Shown: positions 143 to 362 of the stretch, one piece after another
Position numbering within the stretch: the first letter of the stretch is position 1
How the letters are laid out: the number at the start of each line of letters is the position of its first letter
Assembly: GCA_947627935.1 (NCBI GenBank)
Contig: CANQXY010000004.1
Coordinates: forward strand, 1,536 to 65,535
Origin: an uncultured Clostridia bacterium
Lineage (GTDB): Bacteria > Bacillota > Clostridia > TANB77 > CAG-508
Direction of reading: 5' to 3'
Length of the DNA: 64,000 nt
Notes under the pieces: generated by a model
The model's input: the letters and a program-made list of their open reading frames with translations, nothing else
The model's database searches: none
What the model was told of the DNA's origin: nothing
Program-made: the position numbers and the translations under genes

Positions 143-198
143 AGCACAAAAAGACAGCAATATTAGCCTATACAAATAGGCATAATACTACTGTCTTT
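143..198 (-). terminator. Rho-independent terminator (long hairpin plus U-tract on the minus strand)
   Basis: AAAGACAG (150-157) pairs with CTGTCTTT (191-198), with additional inner pairing. The plus-strand A-run 148-152 gives a U-tract on the minus strand. Confidence 0.6.
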
Positions 199-294
199 AT
201 TTATTTTTAATTCTTTATTTTCTAAATTATCTGTGTGTGTGTGTGTGTGTGTGTGTGTGTGTGTGTGTACAGCTACAAGGCTTACATGTCTCAT
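163..294 (-). CDS. Candidate 43-aa mini-ORF, MRHVSLVAV-(HT)6-DNLENKELKINKDSSIMPICIG; the His-Thr tract is encoded by the (CA)18 repeat
   Basis: GAGGAG lies about 12 nt upstream of the ATG at 294. The frame was read codon by codon, and the stop at 165..163 lies inside the terminator stem. Too short to appear in the ORF track. Confidence 0.3.
   Translation of the reverse strand: MRHVSLVAVHTHTHTHTHTHTDNLENKELKINKDSSIMPICIG
232..268. repeat. Perfect dinucleotide microsatellite, T(GT)18 on the plus strand and (AC)18A on the minus strand
   Basis: Counted directly: 37 nt of uninterrupted alternating T/G. Confidence 0.98.
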
Positions 295-333
295 TGTTTT
301 TATTTTCTCCTCTTTGGTTTATTTTTCTTTTTT

Positions 334-362
334 AGTATATATTAAACTTTTTATTTTTGCAA
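334..362 (-). promoter_or_regulatory. Predicted sigma-A-type promoter, TTGCAA-17 nt-TATACT, driving the mini-ORF
   Basis: The -35 is at 362..357 and the -10 at 339..334, with a 17-nt spacer. It lies downstream of the ylmH-like stop codon. Confidence 0.4.

Follow-up and report, generated by a model that had tools for sequence, protein, structure and literature searches.

We analysed a stretch of 64,000 nucleotides of DNA (the window) from an uncultured Clostridia bacterium (GTDB lineage TANB77; CAG-508), corresponding to positions 1,536 to 65,535 of contig CANQXY010000004.1 in GenBank assembly GCA_947627935.1. At one end of the window, a short leader open reading frame (ORF) containing a long run of CA dinucleotides, followed by a terminator-like hairpin, lies between a ylmH-like gene and the start of a prepilin-like gene. 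An earlier interpretation made from the letters alone (the sequence-only reading) had suggested that changes in repeat number could switch read-through into the pilin gene on and off. Coordinates in and around the module refer to minus-strand features unless a strand is given. The locus comprises the following features.

386..1189, minus strand: ylmH-like gene encoding 267 aa, the upstream neighbour of the module
362..334, minus strand: candidate sigma-A promoter (-35 TTGCAA at 362..357, 17-nt spacer, -10 TATACT at 339..334)
312..307, minus strand: Shine-Dalgarno (SD) sequence GAGGAG, 12 nt 5′ of the leader ATG at 294
294..163, minus strand: leader mini-ORF of 43 codons, MRHVSLVAV(HT)6DNLENKELKINKDSSIMPICIG, with stop codon TAA at 165..163
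285..268, minus strand: conserved box GTAAGCCTTGTAGCTGTA, directly 5′ of the repeat (family consensus GAAAGCCTTGTGGCTGTA)
268..232, minus strand: perfect A(CA)18 (Tandem Repeats Finder, TRF: 18.5 copies, 100% match)
267..232, minus strand: (CA)18 simple sequence repeat (SSR), read in the leader frame as (CAC ACA)6, i.e., (His-Thr)6
229..227 and 224..222, minus strand: short-frame stop codons TAA (n-1 class) and TAG (n+1 class)
198..150, minus strand: intrinsic-terminator-like hairpin found by folding (core GACAG...CTGTC at 195..153), with U5 at 152..148
102..1, minus strand: prepilin-like gene (SD AGGAGG at 102..97, ATG at 88, first 29 codons MNKTKLEKGITLIALVITIIVLLILAGIS), which runs off the window

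The (CA)18 tract, with a unit length not divisible by three, lies inside the leader ORF and is followed by an A/T-rich tail. It is the sole dinucleotide run of six or more units in the whole window (25.3% G+C). Rechecking of the minus-strand coordinates showed that the SD, the ATG at 294 and the 43-codon ORF containing the repeat had all been correctly placed. ORFs running across the repeat on the plus strand (MCVCVC...) had no SD and were not conserved, and these were rejected.

The hairpin that follows is strong, with a folding free energy of -29.8 kcal/mol (z = -6.7), and none of 200 dinucleotide shuffles folded as well; a simple terminator scan had missed it because of its long, bulged stem. 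The leader stop codon at 165..163 makes up the first three bases of the hairpin's outer 3′ arm, so that coordinates and folding agreed with the proposal that this stop lies within the 3′ arm of a strong hairpin with a U-tract. With 18 units the leader is in its long frame. The consequences that had been claimed for the loss or gain of one unit were both verified: 17 units give AGA TAA, with a stop at 229..227, and 19 units give CAG ATA ATT TAG, with a stop at 224..222. The first paired base of the hairpin follows these short-frame stops at a distance of 28 and 23 nt, respectively. Counted from the end of the repeat, the three stops end at +69, inside the hairpin (+37..+79), at +10 and at +5. 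All three leader frames thus stop at or before 163, upstream of the pilin ATG at 88, and no repeat frame is continuous with the cargo ORF at the window locus. An Rfam scan of 1..3000 (E up to 1) returned only two sub-threshold chance matches, on the hairpin, and no known riboswitch or leader RNA is present in that region.

We consider it quite probable that this arrangement is a stochastic on/off switch combining a hypermutable SSR with ribosome-mediated antitermination. The promoter, about 30 nt upstream of the SD, would transcribe leader and cargo as a single mRNA, and a ribosome would translate the leader ORF from the ATG at 294 through (CA)n. Slipped-strand mispairing would alter n by single units and thereby shift the ribosome among the three frames. 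When n is a multiple of 3, 22 further codons would be open after the repeat, ending at the TAA in the 3′ arm of the hairpin; the ribosome following RNA polymerase would then cover the 5′ arm, formation of the hairpin would be blocked and the pilin-like gene would be transcribed (predicted ON). In the other two classes, the ribosome would stop at 229..227 or 224..222, allowing the hairpin to form and transcription to terminate at the U-tract (OFF), with an efficiency that we take as predicted, like the polarity of the ON state. The assembled allele of the window is in the ON frame, and switching at this locus would result in variable display of a surface adhesin-like protein. A comparable coupling operates at Escherichia coli pyrBI, where the pyrL leader ORF of about 44 codons runs through the attenuator hairpin and a close-following ribosome blocks its formation. 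There, coupling is set physiologically by UTP-dependent pausing of the polymerase, whereas here it would be set genetically, via the repeat frame.

Homologous modules are found elsewhere. A search with the mini-ORF peptide gave some 80 small called ORFs at E up to 10. Almost all of those whose sequences were retrieved carry the core (E/V)(S/T/N)L(V/E)AV-(HT)3-6, and some sets of ORFs differ in HT number alone (P0123, P0131 and P0158, with 5, 4 and 3 pairs, respectively). Scanning of DNA with the pattern CTTGTRGCTGTA(CA)5 identified 47 metagenome and 7 viral contigs (contigs are given L numbers throughout), one eukaryote-like chance match being among them. In nearly all of these modules the parts occur in the same order: a promoter-like pair, a strong SD and ATG, 4-15 variable codons, the box, (CA)5-19, a tail with stops in several frames, and a gene. 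The leader SD is AAGGAG or GGAGG in nearly every module, and the commonest downstream gene encodes a prepilin-like protein. Exceptions to the order are L027, located at an hsdS junction, and L056, which lacks a clear SD and ATG. The nearest DNA homologues of the window leader, L081 and L083, share its promoter position, the tail motif AATAAAGAYAG and the hairpin, which is kept via a compensatory change (GACAG/CTGTC to GATAG/CTATC) with the stop codon inside it. Patterns specific to this species, taken from the DNA 3′ of the repeat and from the hairpin, had no match in viral contigs.

The frame rule was then evaluated on the 14 modules that possess a hairpin with a U-tract. In 13 of them, exactly one repeat-length class stops in or beyond the hairpin, and the remaining two end 12 nt or more upstream of it. 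When the segment preceding the hairpin was shuffled, this pattern arose with a per-locus probability of 0.07-0.35, and the Poisson-binomial probability of observing it in at least 9 of 10 groups, after related modules had been conservatively collapsed, was P = 1.2e-5. The property ascribed to the window, that only one repeat-length class brings a ribosome onto the terminator, is therefore common to nearly all modules of this type.

Repeat length varies in the sister loci. We compared contigs from different samples with 98-100% identical flanks that differ only in CA number, and obtained the following allele sets.

L051, L037, L055, L063, L071: 11, 12, 13, 13 and 18 units
L070, L046: 9 and 17 units
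L075, L064: 10 and 16 units
L080, L076: 15.5 and 16.5 units
L079, L078: 13.5 and 15.5 units
L039, L045: 9 and 10 units

These alleles cover all three frame classes. Across the 45 loci with sufficient downstream sequence, 21 were in the long frame and 24 in a short frame. Long and short frames are both common, a pattern expected of a contingency locus and not of an in-frame length polymorphism. In eleven contigs the sequence breaks off in the CA tract or no more than about 50 nt past it (L020, L031, L035, L041, L051, L052, L060, L061, L065, L069, L072). The tracts thus appear to break short-read assemblies, an observation that fits length heterogeneity within samples without proving it.

Three other observations were made on these contigs. 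In L081 (4179..4270) and in L082, which is the same locus in a second sample, the prepilin-like frame (..SGITLVALVITIIILLLLAGIS) is +1 relative to its ATG, and the offset spans an A6-C-A5 tract (ATGACAAAATTAAAAAACAAAAAGCGG); another point prone to slippage, a programmed frameshift or a pseudogene could account for it. In L058, a promoter and leader N-terminus of L046-family type are followed by a tail and pilin-like gene of L037-family type, which suggests recombination between modules in or near the repeat. Positions 1..23 of L071 are a remnant of a Nextera transposase adaptor (..AGATGTGTATAAGAGACAG), an assembly artefact in the public contig.

As a class, the switch mechanism is already known from Streptococcus gallolyticus, with genetic proof (Danne et al. 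2014, PMC3894217). In the pil1 and pil3 loci of that species, a leader-peptide ORF contains GCAGA repeats and precedes a stem-loop terminator. Expression is low when the leader stops 28 nt or more upstream of the hairpin, and high when it stops within or beyond it; mutation of the ATG, inserted stop codons and deletion of the terminator all behave as the model predicts (PMC3894217). The geometry of the window, with short-frame stops 23-28 nt before the hairpin and the long-frame stop inside it, fits these thresholds. Both systems belong to Firmicutes and share a promoter, an SD and ATG, a leader ORF with a non-triplet SSR, a terminator and a surface-appendage gene. In both, the position of the stop relative to the hairpin sets read-through (a prediction in our case), and repeat number differs among strains (here, among sister loci). 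They share no sequence homology, and they differ in the repeat (a GCAGA pentanucleotide of 13-22 units versus CA of 5-19 units), in the cargo (a sortase pilus versus a type-IV-prepilin-like protein) and in frame usage: the +1 and -1 variants of strain UCN34 both gave long peptides, whereas only one frame of three is long here. In the (CA)n modules, moreover, a conserved box of about 20 nt always accompanies the repeat, and the cassette also serves in the fused and translationally coupled formats described below. Finally, the pil1/pil3 switch has been proven experimentally, whereas that of the window is predicted from its sequence. Taken together, module recurrence, the alleles of sister loci and the S. 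gallolyticus precedent support the proposal that repeat length sets read-through into the pilin gene.

Several points weigh against such a switch at the window locus. The 12 nt between the SD and the ATG is a rather long distance. The candidate promoter matches the consensus at 9 of 12 positions and is weak; its description as near-consensus was overstated, as such sites occur at chance level in the region (14 found versus 13.1 expected from shuffles). What stands of that claim is its position, which is kept in L081 and L083 (TTGTCA/TTGACA-17-TAATAT/TATCAT at the equivalent place); a TTGnnn-17-TAnnnT pair is likewise found 40-60 nt before the SD in most other modules. A second promoter-like match at 210..182 (9/12), from which transcripts would start inside the hairpin, could yield switch-independent transcripts, and read-through from ylmH into the module is possible; both could blur the switch. 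Repeat-length variation was not found at the window locus itself among contigs with identical YlmH: all four of these end 29-133 nt past ylmH, before or inside the repeat, one of them (L020) within the CA tract. P0121 and P0122, the homologous ORFs closest to the window mini-ORF, share its ends and have 4 HT pairs (about 12-13 units) versus 6 here, which places them in the same frame class, in a set of called ORFs that favours long-frame alleles since short-frame alleles are unlikely to be annotated as genes. In one terminator-type module, L030, no frame reaches the hairpin. Lastly, transcription in many Firmicutes is reported to be 'runaway', with polymerase outpacing ribosomes (PMC13323073); on that account, ribosome-mediated antitermination would be weakened unless the polymerase pauses.

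Some of these points bear on the first alternative, that the elements are independent units: the hairpin would end the ylmH operon and/or the mini-gene, the pilin-like gene would have its own promoter, and the repeat would be without effect. The lack of a terminator of its own for ylmH before 198 is consistent with this, as is the abundance of promoter-like hexamers in AT-rich DNA, exemplified by the 210..182 site. Yet a promoter scan of the window found no promoter-like match between 148 and 102, and in several modules the stretch from terminator to cargo SD is too short to hold a promoter of its own. The L037 family has its U-tract about 20 nt from the cargo SD, which leaves no room for another promoter, and transcription of the cargo must therefore cross the terminator. 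We infer that leader and cargo are on one transcript. The pattern of a single frame entering the hairpin is, in addition, far from chance.

Comparison with sister strains provided further evidence against independent units. YlmH homologues are all 267 aa long (Pfam YlmH_RBD/S4), and the true start of the window gene is probably M6 of a 272-aa ORF. For this low-G+C gut lineage, the best GTDB representative, 'Clostridium sp. CAG:440'-like, shares only 65% YlmH identity. In the closest strains (YlmH identity 95%, 85%, 84% and 79%), ylmH is directly followed by convergent rimI-tsaB-tsaE, and L022, L023, L024 and L025 have a bidirectional terminator and these convergent genes where the window has the module. 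Since rimI-tsaB-tsaE comes right after ylmH in sister strains, the leader and the pilin-like gene constitute an insertion here, located directly after the ylmH stop codon. No repeat was found after ylmH in the GTDB relatives or the closer strains examined. Module and cargo were thus inserted as a block, and we judge it unlikely that they are independent units.

Every (CA)n tract is preceded by a box of about 20 nt with the consensus (T)GAAAGCCTTGTGGCTGTA. Across 37 dereplicated families, conservation is 70-100% at the box positions that had not been specified in the search pattern. The third positions of box codons are conserved as strongly as the others, the codons are rare in the genome of the window (AGC, 5% of Ser; CTT, 14.5% of Leu; GTG, 3% of Val), and L027 reads the box DNA in another frame. 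For these three reasons, we conclude that the box is constrained on its nucleotides and not on the peptide. An RNA hairpin within the box (AGCC-UUGU-GGCU) was rejected as it is broken in the window and in 12 of the 37 families, and the lone possible compensatory case, L081, restores no stable stem. Likeness to tRNA, repetitive extragenic palindromic (REP) elements, ops and boxB was compared by eye, and nothing held.

The exact 18-mer box was also found on its own, lacking a CA tract, in about six independent viral sequences, where about three would be expected by chance from a rough estimate of collection size; three of these occurrences are intergenic. In the IMG/VR contigs L086/L089/L090, L088 and L091, GAAAGCCTTGTGGCTGTA lies without a CA tract in phage intergenic regions, with GG(G/T) as the next bases; L088 and L091 have inverted iteron-like repeats on either side of it. 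Such tract-less occurrences in phages may be partly due to chance.

The cassette is found in three output formats. In the first, box-(CA)n is followed by a terminator, as in the window. In the second (L038, L039/L045/L048 and L043), it lies in frame inside a long prepilin leader peptide. These sister modules resemble translational SSR switches such as the CT repeats in Helicobacter pylori outer-membrane protein genes and the poly-G tract in Neisseria pilC; the window differs from such switches in that the repeat ORF is separate from the cargo, with a terminator between them. In the third format, the cassette is part of an upstream ORF whose long frame ends over the start codon of a phage tail-fibre-like gene (UAAUG or AUGAGUAA), as in L064/L075, L076-L080 and L036/L040/L074, the last set with a Gp10_C domain. 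Overlap with tail-fibre or baseplate-like starts, without a terminator, was observed in phage or prophage contigs L076, L078-L080, L064/L075, L036/L040/L044/L074, L028 and L073. The Gp10_C domain was located in L040, and the cargo SD and ATG of L078 appear to be sequestered in a hairpin. Their arrangement suggests that the phage modules would mediate phase-variable translational coupling, and possibly variable host range.

The cassette also occurs at a restriction-modification gene. In L027 (168..1410), box-(CA)16.5 lies at the junction of two half-hsdS ORFs in different frames, where a change in the repeat would fuse or separate two target-recognition domains; L027 is thus a candidate for phase variation of a Type I specificity gene. 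Type I hsdS genes that vary through SSRs are known as 'phasevarions' (PMC7383803). That likeness concerns only this sister locus and not the window, and it indicates that the cassette is not pilin-specific.

Box and formats together help to weigh a second alternative, that (CA)n acts untranslated, its length altering mRNA or DNA structure (pairing with a UG-rich flank, Z-DNA) or RNA processing to give graded tuning. A precedent exists in Haemophilus influenzae hmw1A, whose 5′-UTR (untranslated region) contains a heptanucleotide SSR with a length-graded effect via a hairpin processed by RNase III; this repeat is transcribed, and a flank in cis is required both for expression and for change in repeat number (PMC12721329). 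As in our modules, the SSR is transcribed in the leader of an adhesin gene, and the flanking cis element offers a precedent for a role of the box, which contains UG and directly abuts the tract. The hmw1A repeat is, in contrast, untranslated, and neither a leader peptide nor a terminator is involved. In folds of the whole window leader the CA tract is unpaired in both the minimum free energy (MFE) and the centroid structures, except for its last two bases in the MFE structure. A strong SD and ATG always precede the tract, the stops are arranged by frame, and the in-frame fusions of sister modules leave frame as the only possible read-out. An untranslated action is thus very unlikely.

The sequence-only reading had offered another alternative, a phase-variable His/Thr-rich peptide as the product of the mini-ORF. 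Such a peptide would have a function of its own (metal-binding, signalling or secreted), and the terminator would do no more than close its gene. The ORF does have an SD and ATG, and many homologous ORFs are open. This alternative nevertheless found no support, and we regard it as highly improbable: the tails after the repeat differ wholly between families and show no conservation as peptides, selection on the only conserved stretch acts at the nucleotide level, about half of the natural alleles are in a truncated frame, and the cassette also occurs in prepilin leaders or over tail-fibre starts, where frame alone counts. Finally, a classical amino-acid attenuator, in which starvation would stall ribosomes at the 12 alternating His/Thr codons before the terminator and so control termination, is hardly credible, as no alternative antiterminator pairing was found (the fold of the whole leader shows the terminator only), the cargo consists of surface proteins and tail fibres and not of biosynthetic genes, natural repeat number varies over all three frames, and a ribosome stalled in the tract would be at least 34 nt before the hairpin.

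The phase switch through ribosome-mediated antitermination would then be one use of a more general element. We put forward tentatively, as a possibility somewhat more doubtful than its converse, that box-(CA)n is a portable cassette dedicated to contingency variation in uncultured low-G+C gut Clostridia and in their phages, with the box as a functional cis element and with three read-outs: antitermination at a terminator, in-frame prepilin leaders, and translational coupling to tail-fibre or hsdS genes. Hypothetically, the box might promote slippage, in the manner of the hmw1A flank, make the polymerase pause so that ribosomes could catch up where transcription is runaway, or bind a factor acting in trans.

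The cargo gene of the window had been described as prepilin-type with its ATG at 88. The ORF and the general pattern stand: its N-terminus, MNKTKLEK-G-ITLIALVITIIVLLILAGIS, is a short basic leader ending in Gly and followed by about 20 hydrophobic residues. The family signature does not fully hold. The 29 residues score 18.8 bits against Pfam N_methyl (PF07963), under the 21.2-bit cut-off, and sister cargo proteins score 16.6-20.5 bits; Glu+5 is absent, position +5 being Ala (G|ITLIA), as in nearly all sister cargo proteins. NCBIfam gave no match and no name for the cargo family. Full-length sister cargo proteins are 259-719 aa long, with a G-ITL(I/V)AL... N-terminus and adhesin-like C-terminal parts (GLUG motif, BspA-type leucine-rich repeats).

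Elsewhere in the window, a cluster resembling Tad or type-IV-filament genes, with hardly any Pfam matches, extends over 24426..36551 (minus strand). It includes a T2SSE-type ATPase (32096..34042; 26.9 bits), two ParA/MinD-like ORFs, a large polytopic membrane protein, five small paralogues starting with MENASKAL(I/L)(I/M)A and a hydrophobic stretch, and one more starting with MENSTITVIAIIL. No prepilin peptidase was identified alongside this cluster at 24.4-36.6 kb. The cluster could be the filament machinery that handles the prepilin-like proteins. Adjacent ORFs of 143 and 144 aa at 27324..28209 are near-identical over their first ~87 residues and diverged at their C-termini, which suggests that a putative pilin-like subunit was recently duplicated in tandem; TRF flagged one 10-mer at both 27528 and 27982.

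In the literature searched we found no description of the (CA)n cassette, as recognized here from its sequence pattern. New are the repeat type, the cargo, the host clade, the conserved box and the three output formats. Phase variation by a repeat, a leader and a terminator had so far rested on one species, S. gallolyticus. Our results point to an independent origin of the same logic and to its wide occurrence in uncultured gut Clostridia, where it would control a large family of prepilin-like surface proteins of adhesin type. As the ON/OFF state can be read from n modulo 3, switching in populations could be measured from existing read sets, and the box provides a concrete, mutable target for what makes an SSR switch work. 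The presence of the cassette at phage tail-fibre and Type I specificity genes implies stochastic variation in adhesion, host range and methylation in gut communities. If the cassette is indeed portable, hosts and phages would share a combinatorial system that varies surface proteins, host range and restriction specificity.

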